A stretch of DNA of 64,000 nucleotides from Patescibacteria group bacterium. GTDB lineage: Bacteria; Patescibacteriota; UBA1384; XYA2-FULL-43-10; 1-14-0-10-43-13. Below are positions 1,587 through 52,477 of the stretch, one piece after another. Each line of letters starts with the position of its first letter. Positions within the stretch are counted from its first letter, which is position 1. A model generated the notes under the pieces. That model did no database searches. It saw nothing but the letters and a program-made list of their open reading frames with translations, and had not been told where the DNA came from. A program made the translations under genes and the position numbers. The DNA is taken from NCBI GenBank assembly GCA_041671645.1, contig JBAZBD010000001.1, positions 479,234-543,233 on the forward strand. The letters are read 5' to 3'.

Positions 1587-1600
1587 TAATCGGAGAGGGA

Positions 1601-2685: not shown

Positions 2686-2695
2686 AAATGATCAA

Positions 2696-2735: not shown

Positions 2736-2738
2736 TTA

Positions 2739-3476: not shown

Positions 3477-3477
3477 T

Positions 3478-23440: not shown

Positions 23441-23781
23441 GTTTCTGGAGATTCGACTGGGATTTGGGGACATTAGAACGCAGATATATAAGTTAATAAG
23501 CATTTGTGGGTCCTTTAAAACACATGGACCTAGCTCAATTAGCTTCTGACGTTCTCGCCCTCTTCCTGGTTGGATCTTCCGACGCAAGACAACTTACGAA
23601 ATTTCGGAGCAAGATAGCTTGCAGAGAAAAGGAGTATGGTGTTACAAAATCTGGAACACAAACGATTGTAATAAACCAGTCACCCCTTGGATGGCGATAT
23701 TGTGCTGTAAAGCATTTATTGCACGCCAAGGAAATGAAACTTGTCTGCAGTACACCACAATCTATCCTAGGAGGTAGAAAT

Positions 23782-26063: not shown

Positions 26064-26165
26064 TGGTTGAGTGCCTCCCAGATCGCAAATGCATCTGGGA
26101 TCACTCTAAAGAACAGAAAAAAATTTATTAATAAGTTTCTGCTCTTTAGAAGTGAAAGGAAGAAA

Positions 26166-36548: not shown

Positions 36549-36605
36549 TGCATAGCGCTATATCTATAGTATGAGGCTGAGATTAAGCTGGCGTGAATCA
36601 CGCCC

Positions 36606-36634
36606 TTGACACACTATATATGGGATGCTATAAT
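36606..36634 (+). promoter_or_regulatory. Consensus sigma70 promoter P1 (TTGACA-17-TATAAT)
   Basis: Exact consensus hexamers with a 17-nt spacer. A perfect palindrome GGCGTGA-A-TCACGCC lies immediately upstream (36590-36604). Confidence 0.75.
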
Positions 36635-36640
36635 GCTTAG

Positions 36641-36830
36641 TTCTGAGGGTAGAGAAGAGCTCACCCCCAGAAGGAAAAAATTATACATCCTTTAGACTTT
36701 ACAGACTTTACGACTTCCGACTTCTCTTGCGGTAGCGTGCTGGTAGTAGCTCATGGGTACCCCCTCCACCTGTGAGACCACTATTATCAGCACAGTACCG
36801 CAAATCCAGCACGAATCACGAGTAAGGTGC
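36641..36830 (+). ncRNA. Candidate small RNA 1 (paralog A) with C-rich core CAUGGGUACCCCCUCCACCUGUG
   Basis: Downstream of P1, no ORF. Enclosing helices GCGGTA/TACCGC and GTGCTG/CAGCAC (36708-36792) present the core (36743-36765) in a loop. GACTT x4 period-8 repeat at 36694-36722. Confidence 0.5.
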
Positions 36831-36859
36831 TTGACAAAGTATTTACAACATGGTATAAT
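36831..36859 (+). promoter_or_regulatory. Consensus sigma70 promoter P2 (TTGACA-17-TATAAT)
   Basis: Exact consensus hexamers with a 17-nt spacer. Confidence 0.75.
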
Positions 36860-36865
36860 GTTCAC

Positions 36866-37110
36866 ATGACGATTGGAAATTGAATCGTCGCACCAAACAA
36901 TTTTCTTCACTTAAGTTTCTGCAATCAATCAACGCATACGAGGGTATGAGGGACGATAGATTGAAAGCATATACTACAAAAATGCAGCGGTAGTGTCCTG
37001 CATAATTCACTCTCTTGATTTATCAAGAGAACATGGGTACCCCCTCCACCCGTGTCGAGTTATGCAGAACAGTGCCGCTATTTTTAAACCGAAAGTTCGG
37101 TTTAAATAAT
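36866..37110 (+). ncRNA. Candidate small RNA 2 (paralog B) with C-rich core CAUGGGUACCCCCUCCACCCGUG
   Basis: Downstream of P2, no ORF of more than 15 codons. 5' hairpin GACGATTGG…CAATCGTC. Enclosing helix CTGCATAA/TTATGCAG (36997-37067) with inner 9-bp hairpin TCTCTTGAT-TT-ATCAAGAGA. Core at 37032-37054. 3' hairpin AAACCGAA-AG-TTCGGTTT at 37086-37103. Confidence 0.5.
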
Positions 37111-37296: not shown

Positions 37297-38271
37297 ATGG
37301 CTATGAAAAAGTTATTCACCATCACTTTGACCGCCCTTATCATGTTGGCGGCTGGACTATCACCTGTTTTCGGACAGGTTCCTGCGGACACAACCCCCGC
37401 AACAATCAATTCTATTCCCGTAGATGCAACGAAAATTGAACCTGTCGGAAACGGCAAGCTCAAAATTACGAAGAAAGATGGAGATATTGTTTATATCACC
37501 ATCAGCAATACGCAGAATAACATTTCACCGAAGGCCCAAGTGGCACCACCGGTAATCCAGAAAGTTTACATCACCAAGCGGACTCAGGTTCGCAAGGTGA
37601 GCAATTCTCGACCGGCAGCGAAAGCTCAGCCGAAACCGCAAAGGCAGGCGCTCGTTGCGCCAGAGAAAAAGGAGAAGAATATGGAAAATGTAGCTGTAAC
37701 AGCAATCGTCCTCCCTTGGTGGGGTTGGATAATCGTAGGGATCGCAATTTTCGCAATACTGCGACCACGCGAGTTCAGGACTGCCGTCCGAGCGCTGACC
37801 AATGTAAACCACTTGATCGATGACCGAATTTCGGTCCATCGCCAGGGGTTCGGGTCGCTTACGACTCACACCACTGCGGATTCGGAGACTCGAATTTATG
37901 ATCCCATCGAAAAAACTGAGCTTGAGTGCGAAGCACTCCAAGTGAAGTACGAGAGTCGGGCGCGCATTGTGGAGGCGAAAGCCGATGCAGACATCGCGCG
38001 GAGCTTGCTCCGAGCGAAGATGCTTAAGTCGCTCGAAAGCGACGACACCACTCCTGCACCGCGCCGGCTCGTGCCGGACACTCACAGCGACGAAGAAATG
38101 CGAAGGGCGCGCCGTGAAAAGCGTGCACACGATCGCGAGGAAGCGGAGAAAAAGATCATTGCTGACGAAAAGGCGGCAGAGGATGCCAGGAAGGCAACCG
38201 AAGCCGCTAAGTTAGCGGCAAAGAACAAAAACAAAGGGAACCAGCCACCAGCTGGAGCACAAGTAACTTAA
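37297..38271 (+). CDS. Secreted/membrane protein with charged coiled-coil C-terminus (GC-rich gene)
   Basis: Signal peptide MAMKKLFTITLTALIMLAAGLSPVFGQ. Internal TM WWGWIIVGIAIFAIL. C-terminal RRAR/EEAEKK charged region. AAGGAGA RBS. GC elevated, which generates the spurious antisense ORF 37525..38130. Confidence 0.6.
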   Translation: MAMKKLFTITLTALIMLAAGLSPVFGQVPADTTPATINSIPVDATKIEPVGNGKLKITKKDGDIVYITISNTQNNISPKAQVAPPVIQKVYITKRTQVRKVSNSRPAAKAQPKPQRQALVAPEKKEKNMENVAVTAIVLPWWGWIIVGIAIFAILRPREFRTAVRALTNVNHLIDDRISVHRQGFGSLTTHTTADSETRIYDPIEKTELECEALQVKYESRARIVEAKADADIARSLLRAKMLKSLESDDTTPAPRRLVPDTHSDEEMRRARREKRAHDREEAEKKIIADEKAAEDARKATEAAKLAAKNKNKGNQPPAGAQVT

Positions 38272-38399
38272 GTAGAGGGGAATCGGCCGACATCACTTGA
38301 TGCCGGCCTTTTCCATACCCAAAAAATTGTATATAATATAAACTAGGTTATAATATATTTATATCAAATATAATCTTTTGAGCTAACGGAGGGAGTCCA

Positions 38400-38780
38400 A
38401 TGGTCAATATTGCTGAAGATCAGCAGGTAAAAGATATCATAGAGAAGGATATTTTTGTTTTGCTAAAAGCAGAAAATCTTTCTGACGAGCAAAAAGCTAT
38501 CCTCATGGCGAAGCTTACGGATGAGGCAAATCTACGGATCCTGATCCATGTTGATGAAATGCTTGCCGACTCTGCCAAGACAGAGTTCAAGCGAATAGTG
38601 AGCGAAGGCGATAGCGAAATGTTATCCGCCTTTTTTGTTGCCAACAATATCGATATTGCGATGATATTTGCTGACATTGCTCTGCAACTGAAAGCGGAAG
38701 TGGTAGCATACAACAATTACCTGACAACTTCTGCCAAAGTTTTGGCTACCTCTGCAAAGCAAGTTAAGGGAGACAAATAA
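38400..38780 (+). CDS. Hypothetical protein (126 aa)
   Basis: ACGGAGGGAG RBS. Stop overlaps the start of the giant gene. Confidence 0.55.
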   Translation: MVNIAEDQQVKDIIEKDIFVLLKAENLSDEQKAILMAKLTDEANLRILIHVDEMLADSAKTEFKRIVSEGDSEMLSAFFVANNIDIAMIFADIALQLKAEVVAYNNYLTTSAKVLATSAKQVKGDK

Positions 38781-38781
38781 T

Positions 38782-41700
38782 ATGCCAGGGCCAGAAGGCA
38801 TTCCTTTAGACGATCTGGGTTTAGATCTTGGTGATCCGATGCATCTACCTGGCGATGTTGATTTTGTTGATGACAAGCCTATCAGTGTTGACAGGTCTGA
38901 CCTTCGTCTGGAGGCAACTATGGCGAAGGCTGCCCTTCACGCTAAGACAGAGAAGGGCAAACGCGAGACCAGTGAAGCCAAGAGGAAAGAAGAGGTATTC
39001 AAGACTATATTTGGTACGATCGAAAATATCGGTATATTTAGGGACGCAGATAAGGATCGACGGGCACAAAGCTACGGAAAGTCCTGGATTGGAGATTTCA
39101 ACAGGTCGCTGGCAGGTGTTAAGACCAAGAATTCAGAGGGTATTTATACTGGCCAGACAGTTGGACAGGAAATTGAAACTAAGGCCAAGAAAATCGCACT
39201 CAAGACTGTTGTTACGATAGCAATCGGTGCAGGAATCGCATCGATATTTGGTGGCGTTAGCATCCCTATTATATTGGTGGGTGCTGCTGGCGGGGCAATT
39301 GTCAGAGGGGTGAACGAAGCTCGCCGGATTTGGAATGGCAAAGAGCGAAATATGAGGGGTGAGATAGAGGCCGCCAATGAAGCAGTTATCCAGGAGATCG
39401 ATAAACTAATTGGTGACGCCGCTCTCAAGTATATGGAGCTCGAAGAGGCGCATCTTGGCGAGGAAGGATATCAACCAGACGCTGACCCAGAATTTCAAGC
39501 AATATTATATAGAGCAATTGATTTGGCTCATGATGATACGAAGCGAAAGGTGAAGGTCGTAAAAGTTCCGATTGGCCCTGATATGACCAAGACGAGGAAG
39601 GAGTATGTAGTAGTTGACCCAAGCGAAGAGCCTCCGGCGGCTGCCGAGACAGCGGCTCCTGCGGCCGATGGGACTACTCCGGCTCCTGAAGCAGCCAAAG
39701 ATCCAAAGGTATTTACGGTCGCCGAGAAGGAAGCAGAGCTTCGTAAACTTGAGAAGAAAAATGAATCTATATCCGATTGGTGTGCTACGATTGGTAGCCT
39801 TGGCACATCTATAGTGGCCAAGGTCTTCGCCGGTGCGAAGATGGCAGAGACTGCGGCAAGCCAGGGTGCCAACGCGATTGAAGCACAGCTGAGGGCGGGC
39901 GAGCAAGTTGCGAATATTGATCTAAACGGCGACAACATAAAACATACGATTGAATTGGCACGAGATCAGGCAACTCAAAAGATTACCGATACAGTGATAT
40001 TCCTCAAGGAAGCAGGCAAGGATCTGATGGGCGCAGCCAAGGATGCTCCGAATTACAATCCTTGGGTCAATGACATAATCAATAAGGCTGGCGAGCACTG
40101 GCATACTGTCAGCGAAGCCGCCAATGATCTTACCCAAGTCATAGACATCATCAAGCACAATTTAATCAGTGCCGAATTGCACAAGCAGCTCGTGACTGTT
40201 TGGGCAACTGGTGCTGCAGGACTATTGGCAACTCTTGGTAATAGCTGGGGTAGGGAAGCGACTCAAAACCTAGAAAAAGCCCAAGAAGAGCAATCAGTCG
40301 AACATGGTCAGGTTGTTGCAGGGATGAAGAAAATTCTGCCCAAGCCGATTCCGGAAACTTCTGTCGAGCCAGTGATCGAGACTCCTCCTGAGGAGATTAT
40401 TACTCCTGCAGAAAAACTGAAGCTTGCTGAGGCGGCTGGCCTCGTCTTCACTGTGACAGCGGAGTATTATTTCGAGAGAGATGGCAAAGGCTTCGATCTT
40501 GATAAGGGTGATCGTGCCGTCATATTGGATGAGGATGATTTGGGCACATGCAAAATTGCTTTTTATAGCGCCGATGGAGAAGAGAAATTTCCAGAGAAAA
40601 CATTCATTTTTGACGCGGAAGAAGCAGATCTTATTTTTGGTGCTGGCTGGTCTGAAGAGAGAAGAGCGGAAAGAGAGTCTTCTGATGATGACGGAGATCC
40701 AGATGCCCACGTCGACCAAGATGAAACTGATCAGTCAGAGATGGACAAGACTGACGCAGAATTTGCCACGGAGATGCATGAAAAATACAAAAACACAGAG
40801 TTAGAACTGACTCTCGATGAAGATGGCAAAGTTACCAAAATCGGCAAGGATAATTGGCCCAAGAATAGAGAGAACAGCGGAGTCTGTGAGAACGCGAATA
40901 CTCCAAACGGCCGATATAAAGTCAAGATTTCAAATATTGAGTCTGTCAAAGATAGTATTAATGTGAAGTTTGATCTGAAAGAGCAAGAGCTGGGAGCCGG
41001 ATTCGAGGGCTATACCCACGCTGGATTCCTTAAGTCTGATATGTCAGATGGTATTCCTCAAACGATAATCTTCGGGGCTAGCGCAAACGTACGTGAGATT
41101 GTATTGCTCGACAAAGGTGGCAAGAAGTGGAAGGTACAATCTGCCGTTGGCGATGATAAGCTCGCCATCGTCGACTGTAACCCTGACGGAACACTAGGGG
41201 ACAAGAAGCACAACCCGACCGTGAGCCAAATCAAAGAAGTTTTCATTGAGTGGTATCACAAAGAAAAACCTACGGTCAAGCCTCCTGAGAAGAAAAAACC
41301 AGAGGCTTTGCCCACGGAATTCACTGATAAGTTTACCGAGAGCGGCAAGATAGATTCTGATGCGTTTATAGACGCTATCGAAGCAGACTATTTCGATAGA
41401 AATATTAATGGCGGGAATGGTGGCCGTGTAGTAGTGGATTATGGTGGCGGCGTCGCATCGTTATTCCAGAAAATTGGGGAGGATCAATATGAAGTTTATG
41501 ATTTCGACCTTGAGAAATCAGATATAATCGCAGGTCAGTCGCCCAAGCCTCGCAATAGGGGTGATATCGAAGTAAATCAGAGTAACAAAGTCGGGAAGTT
41601 ATGGCTCGAGAAGAGCTATTTCGGCACCGACTCGTTCAAGAAGAATTGGGCTACTGAGAAGACACTTAACGAATTAGATGTAAACAGCGTGGTTCATTTG

Positions 41701-43968
41701 AGTGACAATATTACGGCCACTGTCCCGAAAGAGCCGGGCGCACCAAGCGTTGGTATGGCTGGTTTGTCATTTAAAATATCGATGGTTGAACGTCAGACAG
41801 GCACTCTTGACCAATTTACATGCGAAATTGTTGGCAATCCCGACAAAGTGGACAAAGCATTCGAAGGGTATGTTTTTCTGGGCGGTATCTTGGACGTTAA
41901 AGCTACAATCAACAGAAAAGTCATGAAGAGAATTTTGGAAGGTGATTCTCTCTCGTTTCCCCTAAAACTCGAGAAGAAGAAAGAAACGGTTCCTGCCGCC
42001 GATGTAGAGAAGAGATTAGCCGAGCTACAAGTTGGCGAAGAATTACCCATTGGCGATTCTATGAAGATTGAAGTGGAAGATGGCCCGACTGTCTTTCTCA
42101 AGGGACTGAAATACAAGATTACGAAATTGCCTTTTTTCGATGGTCGCGATCGTGATCAATTTTCTGGTCATATGGTGAGCGAGAATCCCGAGAATCTTGA
42201 GAAAATAAATAGTGAATTTTCGGAATATGAATTTTCGGCGATTGAGAATATTTCGTTCGGGATAACCATACCAGGGATAAAGAAAAGTCTTGCCGGCAAA
42301 GAAGTAATTTTCAGCTATACAAAAGATGAAGTAAAGAAGAAGGTTGAGAAGCCAGCGACCAAGGATGAAGAGACTGATCCAAACGCAAAAGAAGCGAAGG
42401 AGAAAATCAATCAAATCCTGGAGCTATCGACCAAGCTGGGTGCTCTCAAAACGAAAGTTGCCAAGCAAATAGAGGCATCAGTGGATAGGCTTACTAAATT
42501 AAATGCCAATCCCGATCGCATCAAGTCCTTGGAGATCATCGGACGAAAATTAGACCGTGTGGATCCAACGAAAATTGATGAGAAAATGACAAAGGCGGTG
42601 AAAGCCAGCCGTAAAAAAATTGATGAATACAAAGCTTTTCCGGAAGGCTTAATTGATTCTTACAAAGTTAAAGAGATACAGTCTGTCCGCTCCAAGTACT
42701 TTGAATCGCTTGACGAATTTGTTGGCATATATAATGACTTTTTGGGATCGCTTGAGCATGCTGATACCGACGAAGAAAAGGCCGAATTTATTTCACTCTC
42801 TAGTGAACTGAAGGCCGAGATTGAGAAGCTTGGGCTTGTCAGTGTCGAAGCCAAGACGGGGGACAAATGTGATTATTCAACAATGGAGGCCTCAGAAGGA
42901 TCCGAGACGGGTGACGAGAAATACAAAGGTAAGGAGATTGTCGAGCGCGTGATTAAGCAAGGGTTTATCTTCGACGGCAGTCTTCAGCTTCACGATGGTA
43001 AGCTAGGCGATGTTGCAAAAGCAGCACAAGTTACTGTCTACAAATATGTTGAGGGGGGAGAGACTCCGCCTGTGCTCGAAAATAAAGCAGTGATTCCAAT
43101 CGAGAAGTTGCAAGAGAATGTGCCTGCAGGTTTTCGGTTGTATGGCCGTGCAGAATTTTATCAGGATGATATAGCTGAAGCGCTGGATTCCGTTGATTCT
43201 GAAGCAGATGAACCTGTTCCGACTCTGAAAGCAAAGCCGTTGCTCTACGGCGATGGCGACAAATTCTGGATTATTATACCTGAAGACGGCAAATTCAATC
43301 GATATTCGCTGGATAAGGATTTCAATATTGTTGGAGAGGCTGAAATATTAACCGTTGACAATTTCAAGCCCAAGAAAGAAATCGTTGCGTTATACAGGGA
43401 TAAATTGACTTCCGAGAAAGCTGATGAGGATATCCGGGAACTGGTCGAAGGTAGCGTGGTCCCCCTGGGCTACAATGTTCGCGTTGAAGTAGGGGGCGGC
43501 AAATATTGGACTTTTTCGCCGTCATTCTCTGTCCGTGTGACTCAGATTGTGCCGAATTCGAACGAATCCACACCAGCTGGCCCCATTGAATTCTATAATA
43601 CTGAAATCATGCTTGTGAACGAAGTTCAAGAAGAGATGGCGGAATTTGATGAAGAAGCAAATATATATGTCAATAAATATGGTAATAATGTAAGACTTCG
43701 CTTTAGCCCTGAGCAGATGAGAGACGTCTTGATTGGCAATAATGTAACGCTAACAGAAGACAACGTTATCAAGGGCACTCCTGTGGCAGAAGAAATTTCC
43801 AAAGAAGCCGCCGATAACTCTGATATCAAGGAATTGGCCGAAGTTGCCAATGACCAGAACGACGCATACGCGAACCAGAGGAAGAAGAAAAAGAAAAATG
43901 ATACTAAACCGCCAGGGCTGGAAGACAAATCAAAGAGTGCAGAGAATGATTTGGGGCTAAATGGATAA
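38782..43968 (+). CDS. Giant acidic protein (1728 aa) with one hydrophobic segment near aa 140-175; unknown function
   Basis: Uninterrupted 5.2-kb ORF. The only hydrophobic stretch is IALKTVVTIAIGAGIASIFGGVSIPIILVGAAGGAIV. Strongly D/E/K-rich. No catalytic motif recognised. Confidence 0.7.
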   Translation: MPGPEGIPLDDLGLDLGDPMHLPGDVDFVDDKPISVDRSDLRLEATMAKAALHAKTEKGKRETSEAKRKEEVFKTIFGTIENIGIFRDADKDRRAQSYGKSWIGDFNRSLAGVKTKNSEGIYTGQTVGQEIETKAKKIALKTVVTIAIGAGIASIFGGVSIPIILVGAAGGAIVRGVNEARRIWNGKERNMRGEIEAANEAVIQEIDKLIGDAALKYMELEEAHLGEEGYQPDADPEFQAILYRAIDLAHDDTKRKVKVVKVPIGPDMTKTRKEYVVVDPSEEPPAAAETAAPAADGTTPAPEAAKDPKVFTVAEKEAELRKLEKKNESISDWCATIGSLGTSIVAKVFAGAKMAETAASQGANAIEAQLRAGEQVANIDLNGDNIKHTIELARDQATQKITDTVIFLKEAGKDLMGAAKDAPNYNPWVNDIINKAGEHWHTVSEAANDLTQVIDIIKHNLISAELHKQLVTVWATGAAGLLATLGNSWGREATQNLEKAQEEQSVEHGQVVAGMKKILPKPIPETSVEPVIETPPEEIITPAEKLKLAEAAGLVFTVTAEYYFERDGKGFDLDKGDRAVILDEDDLGTCKIAFYSADGEEKFPEKTFIFDAEEADLIFGAGWSEERRAERESSDDDGDPDAHVDQDETDQSEMDKTDAEFATEMHEKYKNTELELTLDEDGKVTKIGKDNWPKNRENSGVCENANTPNGRYKVKISNIESVKDSINVKFDLKEQELGAGFEGYTHAGFLKSDMSDGIPQTIIFGASANVREIVLLDKGGKKWKVQSAVGDDKLAIVDCNPDGTLGDKKHNPTVSQIKEVFIEWYHKEKPTVKPPEKKKPEALPTEFTDKFTESGKIDSDAFIDAIEADYFDRNINGGNGGRVVVDYGGGVASLFQKIGEDQYEVYDFDLEKSDIIAGQSPKPRNRGDIEVNQSNKVGKLWLEKSYFGTDSFKKNWATEKTLNELDVNSVVHLSDNITATVPKEPGAPSVGMAGLSFKISMVERQTGTLDQFTCEIVGNPDKVDKAFEGYVFLGGILDVKATINRKVMKRILEGDSLSFPLKLEKKKETVPAADVEKRLAELQVGEELPIGDSMKIEVEDGPTVFLKGLKYKITKLPFFDGRDRDQFSGHMVSENPENLEKINSEFSEYEFSAIENISFGITIPGIKKSLAGKEVIFSYTKDEVKKKVEKPATKDEETDPNAKEAKEKINQILELSTKLGALKTKVAKQIEASVDRLTKLNANPDRIKSLEIIGRKLDRVDPTKIDEKMTKAVKASRKKIDEYKAFPEGLIDSYKVKEIQSVRSKYFESLDEFVGIYNDFLGSLEHADTDEEKAEFISLSSELKAEIEKLGLVSVEAKTGDKCDYSTMEASEGSETGDEKYKGKEIVERVIKQGFIFDGSLQLHDGKLGDVAKAAQVTVYKYVEGGETPPVLENKAVIPIEKLQENVPAGFRLYGRAEFYQDDIAEALDSVDSEADEPVPTLKAKPLLYGDGDKFWIIIPEDGKFNRYSLDKDFNIVGEAEILTVDNFKPKKEIVALYRDKLTSEKADEDIRELVEGSVVPLGYNVRVEVGGGKYWTFSPSFSVRVTQIVPNSNESTPAGPIEFYNTEIMLVNEVQEEMAEFDEEANIYVNKYGNNVRLRFSPEQMRDVLIGNNVTLTEDNVIKGTPVAEEISKEAADNSDIKELAEVANDQNDAYANQRKKKKKNDTKPPGLEDKSKSAENDLGLNG

Positions 43969-44758
43969 TATCAACGCAAACAATACAGAATTACGTTTTC
44001 AATCGATCAAGGAGCTCGAGGGGAATGAGCGACTCCTTGCTCTAATTGTCAACCAAATCATGGCTATGAATGAATGGATCGAAGAGATCCATAAGTTTGA
44101 AGCCGAAGCCAAAGTCGAAACAGTGCACACGAAGCGGGTTGCTGAGACGCCTGGCGCCCACACACTTGACCATGGGCGTGTGGTGGCTCATGCCTCAAAA
44201 ATTGAGGAAAGCGCGAAGAAAGATCTTCGAGGTTATCACGCTAGATTGAATAAATTGAAAAGAGCGTTGGCTACAAATCTTGCTCACCTGTTCAGGGATC
44301 TGTCGGCTGAGGGTGACGCGGAGCAAGCTAGGGTTCGGATTCAGGGATTTCTCCAATCAATCAGCGACGAGAAAGCCCGTGTAGACATGGCCGAGCATCG
44401 TTATCCAAATGAAATCGAAAAGCTTAGTATTTATAATGCGCTGGCCAAGAGAGTCGAGGAGTCACGCAAACCGAAAGTTGTCGAACTAGAGGCGAAGGTA
44501 GCTGAGGCCGCGCCAAATCTAACCCCAGCATCTGTCGAGCCGCCTGCAGTTGTGGAAGACCCAGTTATCCCACCACCAGTTGTAGCCGAGGAATCAGTCA
44601 AAGTGGGTGATACTCCACCGGCGGGAGCGACTCCGTTTGTTGACGACGAGCCGGTTGAGGACAAGATTAGCCAGATCGAAAAAATGGGGTCCATATATGA
44701 GCTTACGACCAAACAGCTTGCACCATATTACCCTGGTGAAATAGAAAAAGCAGCATAA
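43961..44758 (+). CDS. Hypothetical protein (265 aa) with Pro/Val-rich C-terminal region
   Basis: 8-nt overlap with the giant gene suggests translational coupling. No recognised domain. Confidence 0.5.
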   Translation: MDNINANNTELRFQSIKELEGNERLLALIVNQIMAMNEWIEEIHKFEAEAKVETVHTKRVAETPGAHTLDHGRVVAHASKIEESAKKDLRGYHARLNKLKRALATNLAHLFRDLSAEGDAEQARVRIQGFLQSISDEKARVDMAEHRYPNEIEKLSIYNALAKRVEESRKPKVVELEAKVAEAAPNLTPASVEPPAVVEDPVIPPPVVAEESVKVGDTPPAGATPFVDDEPVEDKISQIEKMGSIYELTTKQLAPYYPGEIEKAA

Positions 44759-44772: not shown

Positions 44773-47346
44773 ATGGCAACAAGTTCAAATTATTACAACT
44801 CTACTTCTCAATCACGGAACACTATATCGGCTACCTCAACCCAGGCAGATATGTCCGGGTGGTTTTGGTTTTTCGGCACGACTATCGTCCTTACAGCTCT
44901 GGTTTTGATTGTCGTCTGGATTCGCAAGATGTTGATTCGAAAGTCACAGGTCCAGATCACCCGTGACTGGATAATGTTCAAGGTGATGACGCCGAAGGAG
45001 CGCCATGCAGAGGAGGATGACCAGCGCAAGAATTTTCAGGAGATGTTAGGAGTAATTGAGCCGTTTTATGCCAATCTTCACGCGCTTTTTGACAACAATT
45101 TGTTCGCCAAAATGTTCAAACGCCAGACCCATATATCTCTCGAGCTGGTGGCCAAGGAAGGTCGGATATTCTTCTATGTCGGCTGTTCGAAAAAGATCTC
45201 TTCGATAGTTCTGAAGAATCTCCAGGCCCAATATCCTCACTCTGAGGTTCGCGAGGAGAAGGATTATTCAATTTTTCCAGACAAGCCGCTCAAAATGGAT
45301 GTGACCAGCGTCACCCTGACACGGCGTTACATGTTTCCGATCAAAACTTACAAAATGCTTGAAGAGGATCCGCTCAACGCGATCACCAATTCACTCTCGC
45401 GATTGACAGAGAATGAATTGGCCGGCATCCAGATATTGGTACGACCAACCTCAGGGTTATGGCGATTGGCGGGCGAGCGAACTGCCTATAACATTCAACA
45501 TGGCAAATCTCGAGTCTCATATTCCAACACTTGGTGGGTCAGAGCAGGAGAGTCATTCTTCAATTTTGTTAGCAGCTCGGCTAGCATGGTGGGCGGCAAC
45601 AAGGAGCAGAACGAGACAGAGTATCAGAGCTCGATGAGAAAATTGACTCCAATGCAGGAGAACACAGTCAAGCTACTCGGCGAGAAGGCAGCCAAGATCG
45701 GATTTGAATGCCAAATCAGAATTGTCGGAGTAGGGGAGACCGACAAGGACGCCGAGAATGTGACGAAGAATATTGCTGCCTCTTTTAACCAGTTCAACGC
45801 ACCTGACTCCAATGGACTTTGGAAAAAGGAACCAAAAAAGAAAAACGAAGAATTGGCCAACTATATTTTCCGAGTATTTTCATCTGGTAGTGTCTCAATA
45901 TTAAATACCGAGGAGCTTGCTTCTCTTTATCATTTCCCAAATCGTTATATTGATACTCCAAATATCGTCTGGCTGTTGTCTCGCAAAGAGCCGCCACCAG
46001 CCAATTTGCCCTCCGAAGGTACTATCGTTGGTAAATCGCTCTATCGAGGTCAGGAGAAATTCATTCGTATCAAGGAAGCAGATCGTCTACGCCACATCTA
46101 CCAAATCGGTAAAACTGGTGTGGGTAAAACTGTTATGTTCCAAAACATGATTCGTCAGGATATCGAAGAGGGTAAGGGTGTTTGCTATCTTGATCCAAAT
46201 GGTGACGCCGCCGAGTGGATATTGAATCACATTCCGAAGGAACGCGCTGAGGATGTCATCTACTTCAATCCGGCTGATAGAGAGAGGCCATTTGGTTTGA
46301 ATATGCTGGAGTGGAAGACGCCAGAGCAGAGAGACTTCTTGGTCCAGGAATCTATCCAAATATTTTACAAATTGTTTGACCCCAATCAGACTGGTATGGT
46401 TGGTCCGCAGTTTGAGCACTGGATGAGAAATGCGGCATTGACTTTGATGATGCATCCAGACGGCGGCACTATCATCGATATCCCACGCCTCTTTACTGAT
46501 CCAGATTTTGAAAAGGATCGTGTCAAATATGTGACAGATCCTGTGGTTAAATCTTTCTGGGAAAAGCAGATGGCCAAGACGGCTGATTTCCACAAATCTG
46601 AAATGTTGAATTACTTCACCTCCAAGTTTGGTAGATTCATGACCAACGACATGATGAGGAATATTCTAGGTCAGACCAAGTCATCCTTTGATTTCCGCGA
46701 GATCATGGACACCAAGAAAATTTTGATCTGCAATCTCTCCAAGGGATTGATCGGCGAAATTAATGCCTTCTTGCTTGGTATGGTGATCGTATCCAAGATT
46801 GCCATGGGTGCCTTCTCCCGTCAGGAAATTCCCGAGAATGAACGTGTTCCTTTTTACCTCTATGTTGATGAGTTTCAAAACTTTATTACCGATGTTTTCG
46901 CCACGATTTTGTCAGAGTCTCGTAAATACAAACTGAGCTTGAATATCACCAACCAGTACATCGAGCAGTTAGATGAGAAGATTCGTGCCGCTGTCGTGGG
47001 CAACGCTGGTACTTTGATTGCCTTCCGCATGGGCGCCGCTGACGCAGAATTCTTCCAGAAGGAGTTTGACCCGCTCAAGCCTGATGATCTGACAAATATT
47101 GACAAGTATAATTTCTACATTAAGATGCTGATCGACGGCGCGCCAACCCGACCTTTCAATGGTCAGAGCATCTGGCCAGAGGACTTTGAAGGCAATCCCA
47201 AGCTAGGGACCGCGATTAAAGAGCTCTCAAGGCTGAAGTATGGCAAACCCAGAGAAATCATAGAGACGGAGATATTGGAGAGATCGAAGGTTGACAGTAT
47301 TGATCTGCCAGGTCTCAAATCAACTGGCGGAGCACCGACGTCATAA
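44773..47346 (+). CDS. Membrane-anchored FtsK/HerA/TraD-superfamily ATPase (type IV secretion coupling-protein-like), paralog 1
   Basis: N-terminal TM (WFWFFGTTIVLTALVLIVVWI). Walker A GKTGVGKT. Walker B …LYVDEFQNF. HerA/FtsK-type arginine-finger/sensor SESRKYKLSLNITNQY. Conserved block …YHFPNRYIDTPNIVW… shared with ORF 49205. Confidence 0.7.
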   Translation: MATSSNYYNSTSQSRNTISATSTQADMSGWFWFFGTTIVLTALVLIVVWIRKMLIRKSQVQITRDWIMFKVMTPKERHAEEDDQRKNFQEMLGVIEPFYANLHALFDNNLFAKMFKRQTHISLELVAKEGRIFFYVGCSKKISSIVLKNLQAQYPHSEVREEKDYSIFPDKPLKMDVTSVTLTRRYMFPIKTYKMLEEDPLNAITNSLSRLTENELAGIQILVRPTSGLWRLAGERTAYNIQHGKSRVSYSNTWWVRAGESFFNFVSSSASMVGGNKEQNETEYQSSMRKLTPMQENTVKLLGEKAAKIGFECQIRIVGVGETDKDAENVTKNIAASFNQFNAPDSNGLWKKEPKKKNEELANYIFRVFSSGSVSILNTEELASLYHFPNRYIDTPNIVWLLSRKEPPPANLPSEGTIVGKSLYRGQEKFIRIKEADRLRHIYQIGKTGVGKTVMFQNMIRQDIEEGKGVCYLDPNGDAAEWILNHIPKERAEDVIYFNPADRERPFGLNMLEWKTPEQRDFLVQESIQIFYKLFDPNQTGMVGPQFEHWMRNAALTLMMHPDGGTIIDIPRLFTDPDFEKDRVKYVTDPVVKSFWEKQMAKTADFHKSEMLNYFTSKFGRFMTNDMMRNILGQTKSSFDFREIMDTKKILICNLSKGLIGEINAFLLGMVIVSKIAMGAFSRQEIPENERVPFYLYVDEFQNFITDVFATILSESRKYKLSLNITNQYIEQLDEKIRAAVVGNAGTLIAFRMGAADAEFFQKEFDPLKPDDLTNIDKYNFYIKMLIDGAPTRPFNGQSIWPEDFEGNPKLGTAIKELSRLKYGKPREIIETEILERSKVDSIDLPGLKSTGGAPTS

Positions 47347-47515: not shown

Positions 47516-48019
47516 ATGCCAACTGAGAAAGATCTCTCAAATATCAAACAGCTCCTTGATTCAGCCGAGAACAATATTCGCTTGGCACGCTCCCTAATGT
47601 TTTCGCGTGAAGTGTTAGTCAAGAGCGAGCGTAGCGAAGCCTCAAACGAAGAGAGCGAGAGCGTCGTGGAAGGGATATTTGACGGCGAGCGGATGGTTAC
47701 TTCAAGCGGAAAGACTTATTCAGTCCCTGCGAATTATGCCTCGAAATCCAAGCTCGTAACTGGCGACACTCTCAAGTTGACTATTCCTGAAGACGGAAGC
47801 TTTATTTTCAAACAAATCGGTCCAGTCGAGCGCAAGAAACTGGTTGGTTTGTTGGAAGATATGGGCGACAATGTCTATACGGTTACGGCTGGCGGCACCA
47901 AATATCGTGTTCTGGCCGCCTCAATCACTTATTTCAAAGCTAAAATCGGGGACAGGGTAAGTATTCTTGTCCCAGAAGATTCAGCAAGCGAGTGGGCAGC
48001 AGTCGAAAATATTATTTAA
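47516..48019 (+). CDS. Hypothetical protein (167 aa)
   Basis: ORF with acidic N-terminus. No recognised domain. Confidence 0.45.
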   Translation: MPTEKDLSNIKQLLDSAENNIRLARSLMFSREVLVKSERSEASNEESESVVEGIFDGERMVTSSGKTYSVPANYASKSKLVTGDTLKLTIPEDGSFIFKQIGPVERKKLVGLLEDMGDNVYTVTAGGTKYRVLAASITYFKAKIGDRVSILVPEDSASEWAAVENII

Positions 48020-48042: not shown

Positions 48043-49083
48043 ATGGAAAATCGCATGACAGTCAAAAACTTTTCTCCCTACAAAATTGTAAGAGAGGCAA
48101 TCAGCGGCTTAAAACCAAACGAACGTAAGGTTATAGCTAGCCGTTTTGGTGTTGATACTGATCACAAAACACTGTCATCCATCGGTCGTGAGCTTGGACT
48201 TTCACGCGAAAGAATTCGTCAGATCGAAAAAGACGGTCTTCGCAAGCTTGCTAAATCTATCGTTGAAGATAACAACTCATATATTATCGATATCGTTGAC
48301 GCTTTTGAGAAACAGGGCGGTATTTCTAGCCACAACAAAATCGCTGAGAAATTCCTCGACGAAGTAATGCACAAAGACAAGAATGAGTTCAACTCGCTTC
48401 ACCTGATCTTCCTTTTGATGCCACAGATCATCAAGATCGAGCGTACACAAGAGCTCGAAGCTGGTTGGATGCTTGGGTCTGTCTCCAAAGATGACATAGT
48501 CTCAATCATCGATGCTTGGGTCACACATTTGAAGAAACAAAAACGTCCAGAGAATATTGATATTTTGGTCCAATCTCATCCAACTCAATCCAAATACAAG
48601 ATGACCTTCCTTTCAGAACTTCCAGAAATTTCCAAACGACTTGTTCGCACCGAATCTGGTGAAATCGGTCTGTCTGTCTGGCCTGAAGTCAACCCAAAGA
48701 ATGTCAGAGACAAAATCTACTTTATTCTTAAAAAGTATGAAAAACCTCTCCATTTCAACGAAATCGCTGCCAAGATCAAGGATCAGAGCTTCGATGGTAA
48801 GGACATTGTCCGCGCTACCGTTCACAATGAGTTGATTGCTGATGAACGTTTCGTCTTGGTTGGCCGTGGGATCTACGCTCTGTCAGAATGGGGCTACAAA
48901 GAGGGGACTGTCGCCGAAATCATTTCTGAAATTCTATCCAAGAATCCCGAAGGCATGACCGCAGAGGATATCGTCAAGGCAGTGTCCAAACAGAGAATTG
49001 TGAAGAAAAATACCATCCTTATAAATCTTCAGACAAAGCCACTATTTAAAAAAGTTGGCAAGTCAAAATTTGCTCTAAAATAA
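48043..49083 (+). CDS. Sigma-70 region 4-like HTH DNA-binding protein with uncharacterised C-terminal domains
   Basis: N-terminal SGLKPNERKVIASRFGVD…TLSSIGRELGLSRERIRQIEKDGLRKL matches sigma70 region 4 (-35 recognition HTH). The remaining ~270 aa are unassigned. Confidence 0.6.
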   Translation: MENRMTVKNFSPYKIVREAISGLKPNERKVIASRFGVDTDHKTLSSIGRELGLSRERIRQIEKDGLRKLAKSIVEDNNSYIIDIVDAFEKQGGISSHNKIAEKFLDEVMHKDKNEFNSLHLIFLLMPQIIKIERTQELEAGWMLGSVSKDDIVSIIDAWVTHLKKQKRPENIDILVQSHPTQSKYKMTFLSELPEISKRLVRTESGEIGLSVWPEVNPKNVRDKIYFILKKYEKPLHFNEIAAKIKDQSFDGKDIVRATVHNELIADERFVLVGRGIYALSEWGYKEGTVAEIISEILSKNPEGMTAEDIVKAVSKQRIVKKNTILINLQTKPLFKKVGKSKFALK

Positions 49084-49106
49084 GCACATTGTCAGTACTC
49101 AAAGAA

Positions 49107-49140
49107 AGCTCACAGGCCTTGGCCTGTGAGCTTTTGTGTT
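49107..49140 (+). terminator. Rho-independent terminator
   Basis: Perfect 12-bp stem AGCTCACAGGCC-TT-GGCCTGTGAGCT followed by TTTTG. Confidence 0.9.
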
Positions 49141-49204
49141 TGTGGACTTTATAAACATTTATTTGTATAATTAGATTAATGTCTCTATCGGCCAATTTTT
49201 ATAT

Positions 49205-52200
49205 ATGAATTTTATACTATACGTAATTTACTTCGTCTTAATCGTTGGACCAATATACTTAATATGGGCAATTGCTAATATGAACAAAAAAATCAAAAAA
49301 GTCGACTGGCTAGCCGCTCAAGAATACACAGTATTGCGTATAGATGTACCGCGCAACAACGAGAAGTCGCCGATGGCCGCTGAGCAAATGTTTGCCGCTA
49401 TTCATGGTATCTACTCCGAATCTGCCGAATTCCAAAATCATCTGAGCTTCGAGATAGTCTCAAAAGATAAGTTCATTCAATTCTATATCTATTTGCCTTT
49501 GCACTTGAAGGATTTCGTAGAGGGTCAGATCTATGCTCAATATCCGACTGTCGAGATTAATGAAGTCGATGATTATGCCCAGAATGCCAGTATTGGCTCC
49601 AAAGATTATGCCATCTGCGAACTTAATTTGACCAAGCCAGATGTCTATCCAATCAAAACCTTTACAGATTTCGATGTAGACCCGATTTCATCTATCACTT
49701 CCGTCATGACCAAGCTTGGCGAGGATGAGGAAGTCTGGGTTCAATTTGTGATCAAGCCAATAGGGGATGAGTGGCAGGAAAAAGGTCATGAAATGGTCTC
49801 TTCTGTCCGAAACGGCACCAATATTGCCAAGGTTGGACTCGGCCGTGCTATCGCAAGTGGTTTTGCAAAATTTGGCAAAGCTTTAGTCTTGCAGGCGATC
49901 AGACCTGGCGTCGACTTGGATCAGCCAGAAAAGGAAGTCAAATTGCCATCTGCCGTAGAGGACGCCCTCAAGAATATTGAGCTCAAAATCACCAAACTTG
50001 GATTCGAGACCAAAATCAGGGTATTGGCTCTCGGGACCGATCCAACTCTGACCAAAGCTAAATGCCAAAATATCGCTGCAACGTTCAAGCAGTTTAATTC
50101 GACCACCCTAAACGGTTTCAAAATAGGGGAAGTCCATATCAACAATCAGACCTCATTCAAGGATTTCGTATATCGCTCGTTTGAAGATGACGGCGCGATC
50201 CTCAATATCGCTGAAATTGCTTCAATATTCCATTTACCATCTAGTTCAGTCTCGACCCCAAATATTGTTTGGTCTGGCTCCAAGAAGGGAGAACCACCTT
50301 CCAACTTACCGCTTCGAACAAACACTGAAGAATCTCAATTTACAGTGCTTGGACTTACGAATTTTCGGAATAATTTACAGGAGTTTGGCATCAAAACTGA
50401 TGATCGCCGACGACATATTTATATTATTGGTAAATCTGGTACTGGTAAGTCCACATTGATCGAGAATATGGTGATCAACGATATCGCGGCCGGCAAAGGC
50501 GTAATCCTAATTGATCCGCATGGAGAAACTGCGGACAAGATTTTGGCGTGTACTCCTGACAGTCGTATCAACGATGTTATAGTCTTTGATCCTTCCGATC
50601 GCGAATTTCCTGTCGCCTTCAACCTATTGGAAACGGTCGATGATGATTTTAAGGGGATTGTCGCATCTGGTTTTGTTGGAATCTTCAAGAAGATATTTGG
50701 TGAATCATGGGGACCTAGACTTGAGCATATTCTTCGAAATACTGTTTTGGCGCTTCTGGATTGTCCCGATTCCACCATGCTGGACATCCCCAAGATGTTG
50801 ACCAACAACAGGTTCCGCGACAAGATCGTCGAGCAGGTTAAAGATTCGGTGATCCGAGACTTCTGGGTCAATGAATTCGCACAATATGATAGCAAATTTA
50901 GGACTGAGGCTGTTTCACCAATTTTGAACAAAGTTGGGCAGTTCCTGGCCACTTCGACTATTCGAAACATTGTCGGTCAAGCACATTCTCGTCTGAACAT
51001 TCGTGAAGTCATGGACCAGCAGAAGGTAATGATTGTAAATCTATCTCGTGGCAAGATCGGAGAAGACAACTCTGCGCTTCTCGGCGCGATGATGATTACC
51101 AAGATTCAGCTTGCCGCGATGAGCCGTGCTGATGTCACAATCGAGAATAGACCAGATTGTTTCCTCTACGTGGACGAGTTTCAGAACTTTGCGACTGACT
51201 CTTTCGCTACGATTCTTTCCGAGGCTCGAAAGTATAATCTGTCCCTTACTATTGCTCATCAATACATCGCTCAAATGCCTGACCCGGTCAAAGAAGCAGT
51301 ATTTGGCAATGCGGGTACCCTGATCTCATTCCGTGTTGGTGGATCTGACGCTGTGACGCTGGTCAAAGAGTATGCTCCTGTTTTTGAAGAAAACGATATG
51401 GTTAATCTCGAGAAGGCTCATATCTATATCAAACTTCTAATCGATGGTATAGCACCGCCAGCTTTCTCTGCCAGAACTCTGCCACCAGTCGCCAAATTGA
51501 CCGGCAACTATGATCAGGTTGTGAACCAATCTCACCAAAAATATTCTGTCGCGCGCAGTACCGTCGAGGCTCAGATTGATGGTAAGTCAAGTCAGGAAGA
51601 GGAAGAGCTGAAAAGAGAGGCTGAAATCTTCAAATCTGGCGGACTCGAAGCGCTTCTGACAAAACGTGGCGCCGCTTCACCTAGTTCGGAGCCAGAGGAC
51701 CGCGCTCCCGAAAAGGAAACCGTCAACTCCGCATTTATCCCAGAGGAGGCGCAAGCCGAGCCAAAGCCTCTTGTAGACTCTGAGCCAGAAGATAAACCTG
51801 TATACAAGTCTGAACCAGTATCTCAGCCAGAATCAGCAAAGCTAGAAGAACATGCTAATCGCGAAGACGTAGCCTCAGTAAAACATGAAAGCCATGAAAA
51901 ACCCGAAGAGCCTACTAAGTCAGACGAGCCAAGAATCCTGAAGTGGCAGAACGTTATAGAGGGCAAGGTCTACAAGGAGCGCACAGCACGAGGTAATGTG
52001 AAGTGGTATGTTGGCGACGAGGTCGACGAGGAGAAGCTTCTCAAGGCCGGTGTAGTCTTGGACGACAAGGCGAAGCGAATCATTGCGCTAACCGCCAAAC
52101 TCGCAGATCATGATGGCACCCAGAAAAAAAATGTAGTAGGGGAGAGCGATTCTATCCGTCCCGAAAAAGTGGACAATCTATTGGAGCCAAAAGAAGTACC

Positions 52201-52477
52201 AAGCACTGCGATCGTAGAATCAAATTTGCTTCCAGAAATTGCGCCAAATATATTACCTGCTTTTCAACCGGAGAATCTACCAGAGAAACACGAAGCAGAC
52301 AGTCCTGCGCTTGCCCACTCGATATTGTCGCCGAATGAAGAGAAGGAACTGCCGAAGACTGATCATGCTGAGGCGCCAACTAAACATGCCGAATCTCATC
52401 ATGTGACGCATCATCACGCTACCCATCTAGCGGAAGGCCAGTCGGTTAAGCTACACCACAAAGAGGAAGATAAATAG
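49205..52477 (+). CDS. Membrane-anchored FtsK/HerA/TraD-superfamily ATPase, paralog 2, with long low-complexity His-rich C-terminal tail
   Basis: N-terminal TM. …FHLPSSSVSTPNIVW… block. Walker A GKSGTGKST. Walker B FLYVDEFQNF. EARKYNLSLTIAHQY. The C-terminal ~330 aa is E/P/K-rich and ends HAESHHVTHHHATHLAEGQSVKLHHKEEDK. Confidence 0.7.
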   Translation: MNFILYVIYFVLIVGPIYLIWAIANMNKKIKKVDWLAAQEYTVLRIDVPRNNEKSPMAAEQMFAAIHGIYSESAEFQNHLSFEIVSKDKFIQFYIYLPLHLKDFVEGQIYAQYPTVEINEVDDYAQNASIGSKDYAICELNLTKPDVYPIKTFTDFDVDPISSITSVMTKLGEDEEVWVQFVIKPIGDEWQEKGHEMVSSVRNGTNIAKVGLGRAIASGFAKFGKALVLQAIRPGVDLDQPEKEVKLPSAVEDALKNIELKITKLGFETKIRVLALGTDPTLTKAKCQNIAATFKQFNSTTLNGFKIGEVHINNQTSFKDFVYRSFEDDGAILNIAEIASIFHLPSSSVSTPNIVWSGSKKGEPPSNLPLRTNTEESQFTVLGLTNFRNNLQEFGIKTDDRRRHIYIIGKSGTGKSTLIENMVINDIAAGKGVILIDPHGETADKILACTPDSRINDVIVFDPSDREFPVAFNLLETVDDDFKGIVASGFVGIFKKIFGESWGPRLEHILRNTVLALLDCPDSTMLDIPKMLTNNRFRDKIVEQVKDSVIRDFWVNEFAQYDSKFRTEAVSPILNKVGQFLATSTIRNIVGQAHSRLNIREVMDQQKVMIVNLSRGKIGEDNSALLGAMMITKIQLAAMSRADVTIENRPDCFLYVDEFQNFATDSFATILSEARKYNLSLTIAHQYIAQMPDPVKEAVFGNAGTLISFRVGGSDAVTLVKEYAPVFEENDMVNLEKAHIYIKLLIDGIAPPAFSARTLPPVAKLTGNYDQVVNQSHQKYSVARSTVEAQIDGKSSQEEEELKREAEIFKSGGLEALLTKRGAASPSSEPEDRAPEKETVNSAFIPEEAQAEPKPLVDSEPEDKPVYKSEPVSQPESAKLEEHANREDVASVKHESHEKPEEPTKSDEPRILKWQNVIEGKVYKERTARGNVKWYVGDEVDEEKLLKAGVVLDDKAKRIIALTAKLADHDGTQKKNVVGESDSIRPEKVDNLLEPKEVPSTAIVESNLLPEIAPNILPAFQPENLPEKHEADSPALAHSILSPNEEKELPKTDHAEAPTKHAESHHVTHHHATHLAEGQSVKLHHKEEDK

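Follow-up and report, generated by a model that had tools for sequence, protein, structure and literature searches.

Extended VirB6 proteins are exemplified by TraG of the F plasmid, the RvhB6 paralogues of Rickettsiales and VirB6 of the MPF-FA Orf15/TcpH type. In type VI secretion systems (T6SS), the N-terminal transmembrane (TM) domains of prePAAR effectors are shielded by an Eag (DUF1795) chaperone encoded immediately upstream, and the C-terminus of these effectors is variable. The LXG toxins of type VIIb secretion systems (T7SSb) have small helical Lap partners and are exported via the FtsK/SpoIIIE-type ATPase EssC, and the X-Tfes of Xanthomonas carry a conserved XVIPCD domain at the C-terminus by which VirD4 recognises them. 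The present work deals with a gene for a giant protein of 1728 amino acids (aa), hereafter the giant, located in a stretch of 64,000 nucleotides (nt) from a Patescibacteria group bacterium (contig JBAZBD010000001.1); the whole stretch is called the window. The giant belongs to a new, lineage-restricted modular family that swaps cassettes. Its gene is one of four in an island specific to one subclade of Berkelbacteria, the other three encoding a bitopic membrane protein, an acidic soluble partner and a DUF5663-like helper. This island is a hot spot of divergence and domain exchange beside a slowly evolving core of two ATPases, which resemble the VirD4-type coupling proteins (T4CPs) of type IV secretion systems (T4SS). 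Patescibacteria, or Candidate Phyla Radiation (CPR) bacteria, are obligate symbionts whose host-interaction machinery is largely uncharacterised; the locus ties a T4CP-type pair to a hypervariable island, and the linked island is a candidate substrate or partner for this orphan pair. The island consists of the following genes and sites:

37297–38271, forward strand: 324-aa bitopic membrane protein (from hydropathy), first gene of the island
38310–38337, forward strand: promoter-like site TTTCCA-16-TATAAT (10/12) ahead of helper and giant, by consensus match only
38389–38396, forward strand: ribosome-binding site GGAGGGAG
38400–38780, forward strand: DUF5663-like helper, 126 aa, acidic, from homology
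38782–43968, forward strand: giant gene, 1728 aa, ATG start
43961–44758, forward strand: 265-aa acidic soluble protein, fourth and fast-evolving gene of the island, overlapping the giant by 8 nt

Comparison with described secretion systems

Only two N-proximal helices anchor VirB6 in R388, and extended VirB6 proteins carry large hydrophilic domains (PMC12857230). The giant likewise has hydrophobic helices in its N-terminal part, a very long and poorly conserved hydrophilic region beyond them and a T4CP-type ATPase next to it, but it gives no VirB6, TrbL or PrgH profile match, has one robust hairpin and has no VirB4, VirB3 or VirB8 nearby. Furthermore, unlike extended VirB6 proteins, the giant family swaps cassettes between close relatives and has an obligate DUF5663-like partner upstream. 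As with prePAAR effectors and Eag, a small gene stands directly upstream of a large polymorphic protein with N-terminal hydrophobic helices and a variable C-terminus; however, homology to PAAR, Rhs or DUF1795 is lacking here, T6SS genes were not found and the motors are T4CP-like, the likeness being by analogy only.

With the LXG toxins of T7SSb, the giant family shares a conserved helical N-terminal domain, swappable C-termini, a small upstream partner, a variable downstream gene and, as motor, a membrane-anchored ATPase of the FtsK/HerA/TraG superfamily. It differs from them in giving no LXG or WXG100 match, in having a module of about 480 aa with a hairpin and in having downstream proteins larger than immunity proteins; no other T7SS core genes were detected. 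The combination of variable enzymatic parts, a conserved terminal domain and a VirD4-type ATPase recalls the X-Tfes, since most members of the giant family share an end domain of about 70 aa. This domain, however, is unrelated in sequence to that of the X-Tfes and is not at the end of the giant studied here, the main conserved part is N-terminal, and no complete T4SS lies near the giant.

The giant is a genuine gene

An earlier note, made from the letters of the window, had described an acidic open reading frame (ORF) of 1728 aa and 5.2 kb, and this is indeed a real gene. The protein has a net charge of about -89 (D+E 18.5%, K+R 13.3%). Exactly the same protein is present in the NCBI metagenome-assembled genome (MAG), in JGI and in a Logan assembly made independently from SRR18595301, and this agreement of three sources speaks against a misassembly; the NCBI entry, from an 868-kb contig of a 'Patescibacteria group bacterium' MAG, is named hypothetical protein. 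The first codon position is purine-rich (0.69–0.76) throughout the ORF, giving a uniform signature over 5.2 kb, and the GC content of the codon positions follows the order GC1 > GC3 > GC2, as in the neighbouring housekeeping genes. No stop occurs in frame, compared with 78 and 161 in the other two frames. Furthermore, the closest sampled genome, which belongs to another species (locus L010), encodes a 2043-aa orthologue that is collinear over nearly the whole length, and the giant is translationally coupled on both sides. An ORF arising from a frameshift, a misassembly or a decaying gene would fit the orphan C-terminal sequence and the great rarity of the family, but the codon signature, the three sources and the collinear orthologue together exclude a frameshift or assembly artefact for practical purposes, and this explanation is essentially excluded and largely refuted.

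No match to the giant was found in Pfam, NCBIfam, PADLOC or the PDB sequences. Its N-terminus is charged rather than hydrophobic, neither a signal peptide nor a sorting signal is present, and no adhesin-type repeat family was found in Pfam or NCBIfam. The absence of any recognisable domain, as noted earlier, therefore holds for the curated libraries but not beyond them, because residues 41–537 constitute a conserved module of the family described below.

A rare family with a conserved N-terminal module

An index-free HMMER scan of residues 1–1200 of the giant against 1.84 billion cluster representatives returned 21 proteins including the query, all of which match only within residues ~32–552. 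This small number speaks against a widespread stand-alone surface protein, which the earlier note had named as a finding that would refute its interpretation. In a word-indexed search the full giant retrieved only itself and the alignment of the N-terminal module (N-module) retrieved nothing, probably because low-complexity Gly/Ala and Glu/Lys words filled the candidate list. The family, found only in Berkelbacteria, comprises proteins of 548–1852 aa, in addition to the 2043-aa protein of L010. The ten family clusters that were looked up hold 1–2 member sequences each, and the one that is named is a 'hypothetical protein'. Relatives of the giant were not found in IMG/VR, and the metagenome scan yielded no close strain variants of the giant for dN/dS. 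The elements of its N-terminal part are:

38902–40392, forward strand: conserved N-terminal family module, residues ~41–537, from the HMMER scan, the envelope of iterated hidden Markov models (HMMs) and alignments
39181–39324, forward strand: Gly/Ala-rich hydrophobic helical hairpin, residues 134–181, Kyte-Doolittle (KD) peak 2.15
39775–40245, forward strand: two weaker conserved hydrophobic helices, residues 332–355 and 468–488, from hydropathy and alignment

Iterated profiles of the N-module cover about 474 positions, corresponding to residues 41–537 of the giant. In the alignments R175, E179, R182 and E188 are invariant, and R94, K137, P162, R189, E328, G373 and H388 are nearly so; the invariant residues make up the motif GR..EA.R...GKER..R.EIE.ANEA, which follows immediately on the hairpin. 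The hairpin segment of about 45 residues has a family mean KD of 1.33 over ~40 aa, is devoid of acidic residues throughout the family and is flanked on both sides by K/R-rich stretches (family average 4.0 and 5.9 K/R per 20 aa). AlphaFold2, run on the N-module with an alignment of 19 sequences, gave a mean predicted local distance difference test score (pLDDT) of 59.8, rising to 70–87 at residues 130–280, and a fold of mostly long helices with a small beta-sheet. Among these helices is the hairpin, modelled as helices 127–156 and 161–185 with a near-invariant proline in the turn. The two weaker helices, with family mean KD values of 0.92 (332–355) and 0.64 (468–488) and low AlphaFold2 confidence, bracket a segment of ~110 aa with a conserved G..DFDG..H motif and are probably amphipathic rather than true TM helices, leaving the hairpin as the only robust membrane element of the giant. 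The single hydrophobic anchor noted earlier thus exists at residues 134–181, but as a probable two-helix hairpin accompanied by two weaker helices. From sequence and model, the giant is predicted to associate with the membrane by a hairpin without a Sec signal; combined with the positive-inside rule, this would leave the N-terminus and the ~1240 residues after the hairpin in the cytoplasm, unless a dedicated exporter acts on them.

In Foldseek, the best match of the N-module to BFVD had an E-value of 0.23 and a TM-score below 0.17. PHROG gave no match to the N-module, its only matches being the phosphatase/phosphoesterase cassettes of relatives and two unnamed single-member hits. An origin from phage tape-measure or ejection proteins was considered and rejected, as PHROG, BFVD and IMG/VR gave no match and the context is one of chromosomal housekeeping genes. 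Searched against the PDB, the N-module profile also showed a likeness to ubiquitin at positions 323–379 (giant residues ~360–395), with E 0.011 (18 bits) on di-ubiquitin and E 5e-24 on polyubiquitin chains. The latter value is inflated because the match recurs in each unit; the match spans the unit boundary and was treated as chance, probably a resemblance to a beta-hairpin-like motif.

Cassette exchange and the variable C-terminal region

Outside the N-module, members of the family differ by whole blocks. The clusters P0128 and P0129 share 73% identity in their first 750 aa and are unrelated from there on, and P0123 has a phosphatase insert of ~310 aa that is missing from P0124. A Metallophos/PPP-type phosphatase cassette occurs in three clusters as well as in L010 and L043, and another, unrecognised domain is common to four clusters. 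The cassettes are more similar to each other than are the modules that carry them (51% vs 32% identity for P0126/P0130, 47% vs 29% for L010/P0129). Most members end in a common small domain of ~70 aa. Metallophos/PPP-type phosphatases are the sole recognised cassettes of the relatives, and neither known trafficking domains (LXG, PAAR, Rhs, XVIPCD) nor known toxin domains were found in Pfam, NCBIfam or PADLOC. A conserved N-module joined to unrelated or cassette-swapped C-terminal parts is the architecture expected of polymorphic toxins or effectors, a likeness in architecture only. The following features were delimited in the C-terminal part of the giant:

40417–43965, forward strand: variable C-terminal region, residues 546–1728, without likeness to the family clusters
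41653–42360, forward strand: diverged internal tandem duplication, residues 958–1073 resembling 1075–1193 (piecewise phmmer, E 2.5e-4)
42319–43092, forward strand: swap segment, residues ~1180–1437, helical and K/E-rich, with a phosphatase cassette at this place in the L010 orthologue

Neither jackhmmer nor piecewise phmmer detected similarity between the C-terminal region and the 20 family clusters. Its ~1190 residues match one sequence only, the collinear orthologue in L010, at 24–49% identity per 50-aa window, and a two-sequence profile found no match in the PDB. Between residues 1301 and 1400 the identity to L010 drops to 14%; here the orthologue has a Metallophos/PPP-type phosphatase cassette (its residues 1289–1429) that replaces 258 residues of the giant. 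The giant had been described as free of the beta-repeat signatures of adhesins, and although no such repeat family was found, the protein is not repeat-free: a search for internal repeats revealed two weak, diverged duplications. The first of these, listed above, is supported by an out-of-register match of giant residues 1064–1219 to residues 992–1144 of the L010 protein (E 5e-10), and the second relates residues 554–632 to 862–930. Structure prediction, which the earlier note had proposed for the giant, was of use for the N-module, with its helical hairpin at moderate confidence, and not for residues 546–1728, for which the single-sequence AlphaFold2 model is unusable (pLDDT 34.7). By eye, and weakly in this low-confidence model, the C-terminal region appears to contain a helical stretch rich in K and E, besides acidic linkers and short segments of beta-strand.

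A second island family of 690–1210 aa, with long Gly/Ala-rich hydrophobic stretches, was seen in about ten Berkelbacteria species (L003/L011 5269–8418, L004 5106–8009, L012, L013, L016, L027, L033, L034, L035, L063 and L065). It sits upstream of a DUF5663-like gene, which is followed by a short soluble partner (148–596 aa). Aligned by hhalign, this family (L003-type) and the N-module of the giant are collinear over 404 columns with a probability of 39% and E 3e-4; a remote relationship is possible, the match being suggestive only.

Partners of the giant and organisation of the locus

The stop codon of the helper ends 1 nt before the ATG of the giant, indicating that the two are translationally coupled. 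Every family member examined is immediately preceded by a homologue of the helper gene (E 3e-21 to L006; HMM E 8e-44). The helper itself gives no Pfam match, and 10 of its 20 aligned relatives match PF18908 DUF5663 at E <= 0.01, so that by sequence it appears to be a diverged branch of DUF5663; this Berkelbacteria branch and the N-module define two undescribed protein families. Neither DUF5663 nor DUF8128, a region of the ATPases, is mentioned in the literature searched. Promoter-like sites such as that ahead of the helper are not more frequent in the region than expected from shuffling. The 324-aa protein has a signal-peptide-like N-terminus (residues 1–29), a TM helix (131–157) and a charged, K/E/A-rich C-terminal half. 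The same architecture is found at this position in L002–L009, among which a homologue is detectable only in L006 (336 aa, E 7e-11), and L010 gives no match. On the other side, the 265-aa gene starts at 43961, confirming the 8-nt overlap reported earlier, and the same overlap is present in L005 (the P0122 locus). Acidic soluble proteins of 265–1163 aa occupy this position in other loci, without detectable homology to the 265-aa protein.

The order of genes is tgt, a gap of 800 nt, the 324-aa gene, the helper, the giant, the 265-aa gene and then the ATPase cluster, which consists of:

44773–47346, forward strand: ATPase 1, with a TM helix (residues 27–57), a DUF8128 region and a VirD4/TraG-type (T4CP-like) P-loop domain
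47516–48019, forward strand: conserved 167-aa protein between ATPase 1 and the sigma-like gene, without family assignment
48043–49083, forward strand: 346-aa sigma-like protein with an N-terminal Sigma70 region 4 helix-turn-helix (HTH) and a C-terminal HARE-HTH
49205–52477, forward strand: ATPase 2, with an N-terminal TM helix, a DUF8128 region, a T4CP-like domain and Walker A at residue 409

A scan for ATPase 1 in one genome per GTDB species gave 76 loci, on which ORFs were called and searched with custom HMMs. The DUF5663-like gene is present in 32 of them and in all 32 the next gene, on the same strand and -38 to +131 nt away, encodes a variable partner of 148–2043 aa. At least 900 aa are reached by 18 of these partners, 14 have a hydrophobic segment in the first 260 residues, and 9 match the N-module at E < 1e-5; ten loci carry the second Gly/Ala-rich family upstream of the DUF5663 gene instead. 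Wherever the upstream flank of a family gene is visible (6/6 loci: L005–L009 and L002), the DUF5663-like gene stands 0–2 nt before it. The link to the adjacent ATPases proposed in the earlier note was upheld when homologous loci were compared, the placement being conserved wherever the contig gave sufficient context: in all four contigs reaching the ATPases (L002, L005, L008, L009), tgt/L10 is on one side of the pair and the series ATPase 1, 167-aa gene, sigma/HARE-HTH gene, ATPase 2 on the other, the contigs of L006 and L007 being too short. Both genes of the pair are inverted together in L002/L036, L009, L021 and L041, which shows that the pair moves as a unit. In a basal clade (L049–L056, L059, L064, L077 and L079), tgt, ATPase 1 and ATPase 2 stand immediately side by side; the island and the 167-aa and sigma-like genes look like a later insertion into this core.

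It is clear from comparison with L010 that the genes of the locus evolve at very different rates. The identities of the window proteins to those of L010 are:

Sigma-like protein: 94.5%
ATPase 1: 91.6%
ATPase 2: 83.4%
167-aa protein: 77.4%
DUF5663-like helper: 43.4%
265-aa protein: 38.8% (to the 282-aa protein of L010)
Giant: 29% (residues 40–1178) and 38% (residues 1438–1695)
324-aa protein: no match in L010

The ATPase pair

Both ATPases belong to the T4CP superfamily, as judged from matches to TraG-D_C, TrwB_AAD_bind and T4SS-DNA_transf, a Walker A motif and one predicted N-terminal TM helix each. ATPase 1 has its Walker A, GKTGVGKT, at residue 446 and matches TraG-D_C and TrwB_AAD_bind in Pfam, TraD and VirD4-like families in NCBIfam and PF26449 (precomputed); it is 60–92% identical across Berkelbacteria and 47–51% identical in the basal clade. 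ATPase 2 is its paralogue (35% identity). The NCBIfam TraD/VirD4-like matches of the two ATPases all remain below the full-length, curated equivalog cut-offs, and the nearest solved sequences are TrwB and DotL (E 0.003). Of the genes in between, that for the 167-aa protein is highly conserved among the loci (E 1e-57 to 1e-67), and the presence of a protein of DNA-binding type between two TraG/FtsK-type ATPases hints, by sequence, at a DNA-related role of the ATPase core. Among the 43 largest ORFs of the window, Pfam gave no match to families named VirB4, VirB3, VirB6 or VirB8; these ORFs include housekeeping, type IV pilin/prepilin-peptidase, DprA and SecDF families, and several have no match. 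A defence system was considered and set aside, since PADLOC matched the ATPases only in a generic HerA/mad8-type way and did not match the giant.

Among 2,918 Patescibacteria genomes, 5,713 VirD4-type T4CP homologues were reported, of which 148 are near virB4, and the t4cp of Saccharibacteria was not essential for epibiotic growth, leaving exaptation for another function possible (Quinonero-Coronel et al., PMC12102498). The locus described here is one such orphan T4CP pair.

A strong terminator-like hairpin with a 14-bp stem (49104–49135) is directly followed by a promoter-like site (49143–49171) ahead of ATPase 2, which may therefore be transcribed separately. The tail of ATPase 2 (window 51500–52477), about 320 residues long, is acidic, rich in Pro, Glu and His and apparently disordered. 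In L010, ATPase 1 appears as two ORFs of 72 aa and 790 aa (L010 9535–12113), and the 2043-aa orthologue of the giant contains short X runs (masked N); both may be an assembly or masking issue of that MAG rather than biology.

Possible functions of the giant

A coupled partner, linkage to ATPases, cassette-wise evolution and a hairpin without a Sec signal are together architectural hallmarks of polymorphic exported proteins that rely on a chaperone and on a motor of the FtsK/TraG superfamily. For this reason we tentatively prefer to regard the giant as a modular, diversifying host-interaction protein of the cargo or effector type, serviced by the helper and the ATPases, although this falls short of being probable. 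The helper, translated together with the giant, would bind and shield the N-module including the Gly/Ala hairpin. The hairpin may then insert in the membrane, where the adjoining R/E helix (R175, E179, R182, E188, R189) would dock on a conserved partner, most plausibly the ATPase pair. Powered by ATP, the ATPases would export the variable C-terminal region or display it where symbiont and host bacterium touch; in relatives this region bears swappable enzyme cassettes such as PPP-type phosphatases. Pressure from the host, on which the protein presumably acts, might drive the extreme divergence. The family is limited to one uncultivated lineage.

Several observations weigh against an exported cargo or effector. 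No direct sign of export of the giant was seen; the hairpin topology and the positive-inside rule place the large C-terminal part in the cytoplasm, as would be expected just as well of a resident protein. The giant itself has no recognisable enzyme cassette, and the ~70-aa domain typical of the family is not at its end, an internal match of only 7.5 bits (residues 705–735) being found. The downstream partners, at 265–1163 aa, exceed the typical size of immunity proteins, so that an immunity role is not evident. No structural analogue of the N-module was found, at an AlphaFold2 confidence that is only moderate. Within 10 kb of the ATPases, the basal clade has neither the island nor the 167-aa and sigma/HARE-HTH genes, and the ATPases therefore do not need the giant in cis. 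Finally, relaxed constraint, and not an arms race, could be the cause of the fast divergence.

The main rival is a resident scaffold or regulator, anchored by the hairpin in the cell's own membrane, with a cytoplasmic C-terminal region that organises or regulates the ATPase pair or some other process of the envelope; on this view, the phosphatase cassettes found in relatives would serve signalling within the cell itself. We consider it doubtful, though a serious competitor. It would account for the lack of a signal peptide, the K/R-rich flanks on both sides of the hairpin, the helices at 332–355 and 468–488 that are too weakly hydrophobic for confident TM segments, the invariant juxtamembrane motif, which suggests a fixed partner, and the conserved position beside the ATPases. 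Two further points lean this way: PPP-type phosphatases are normally cytoplasmic, and a clade without the island retains the ATPases. However, components of a machine usually evolve at the rate of their partners, and here 29–38% identity stands against 83–94%; the C-terminal regions are wholly replaced between close relatives, the basal clade shows that the giant is dispensable for the ATPases, and small acidic partners that are dedicated and co-translated more typically accompany cargo that is exported or hydrophobic. The layout, in which four hydrophobic helices within the first 490 residues precede a very long hydrophilic stretch and T4CP-like ATPases adjoin, would also suit a subunit like extended VirB6, as in the R388 and extended proteins discussed above (PMC12857230), with the N-module as the channel or stalk of a minimal T4CP-driven translocon. 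This is improbable, since neither TrbL/VirB6, PrgH nor any recurrent Pfam family matched the 19 N-modules at E <= 1, TrbL/VirB6/PrgH matches were likewise absent from the 21 full-length members at E <= 0.001, VirB4, VirB3 and VirB8 are missing from the window ORFs scanned, and no structural match was found. VirB6 proteins have 4–6 or more hydrophobic helices, a number that the giant, with one robust two-helix hairpin and two weakly hydrophobic conserved helices (family mean KD 1.33, 0.92 and 0.64), may or may not reach. Absence from the basal clade that keeps the ATPases also speaks against such a subunit, and cassette swapping would be unusual for a channel.

A surface adhesin or fibre, displaying the acidic C-terminal region outside for attachment to the host, was among the suggestions of the earlier note. 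Large size, acidity, diverged internal repeats and a hypervariability typical of surface proteins would agree with it, and the window does encode genuine proteins of surface type (DUF11/CLIPPER) at another place. The suggestion was nevertheless weakened: signal peptide, sorting signal and adhesin-type repeat family are all missing, the even number of robust TM helices in the K/R-flanked hairpin keeps the C-terminus inside, and some relatives carry phosphatase cassettes of a kind usual in enzymes that are cytoplasmic or injected. An adhesin exported by Sec is thus unlikely, and a surface fibre would be the least expected of the functional roles weighed here. Within the preferred reading as cargo or effector, a bolder proposal, which we regard as unlikely, is that the VirD4-type ATPase pair alone, without VirB4 or the rest of a T4SS, might be the exporter of giant polymorphic effectors, with DUF5663 as chaperone or adaptor and the Gly/Ala hairpin module inserting in the host membrane. 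If true, it would give a function to thousands of orphan Patescibacteria T4CP genes and reveal a new secretion route from episymbiont to host.

Other features of the window

The gap between tgt and the 324-aa gene (window 36600–37110) contains two copies of a candidate new structured small RNA. At 36606–36634 and 36831–36859 there are two perfect sigma-70 consensus promoters (12/12, extended TG), and a 23-nt direct repeat, CATGGGTACCCCCTCCACC(T/C)GTG, lies at 36752–36774 and 37032–37054. At the nucleotide level, positions 36917–37092 are 95.5% identical in L010, and the core (~36979–37094) is 68–80% identical in several other Berkelbacteria loci in which the flanking island proteins are not conserved. 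The candidate is also present at L010:44–196, L013:4450–4600, L004:4106–4256, L030:1873–2023, L015:138–288, L011:2139–2289, L036:1074–1224 and L008:6490–6640. RNAalifold, applied to nine sequences, predicted a fold of ~100 nt closed by a long stem, with a variable inner hairpin that shows compensatory changes and another hairpin whose loop, CCCCCUCC, is invariant and anti-Shine-Dalgarno-like; double compensatory changes were counted in 8/29 pairs. A shorter paralogous copy at ~36728–36805 was recognised by eye. Searched at the gathering threshold and at E <= 1, Rfam gave no match.

A type IV pilus cluster at 165–3918 comprises a prepilin peptidase (819–1586) and, among short ORFs, a protein with an N-terminal methylation motif (2667–3476). 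DprA, a DNA-processing protein of natural transformation, is encoded at 15576–16661. Pilus cluster and DprA are relevant to host attachment and DNA uptake in CPR bacteria, and neither adjoins the giant. Two paralogous surface-type proteins of ~520 aa (26067–27644 and 27663–29222), with DUF11/CLIPPER, DUF7619 and DUF7927 repeats, are preceded by two ORFs without Pfam match (23506–25140 and 25137–26063). The DUF11/CLIPPER gene is syntenic in L005.

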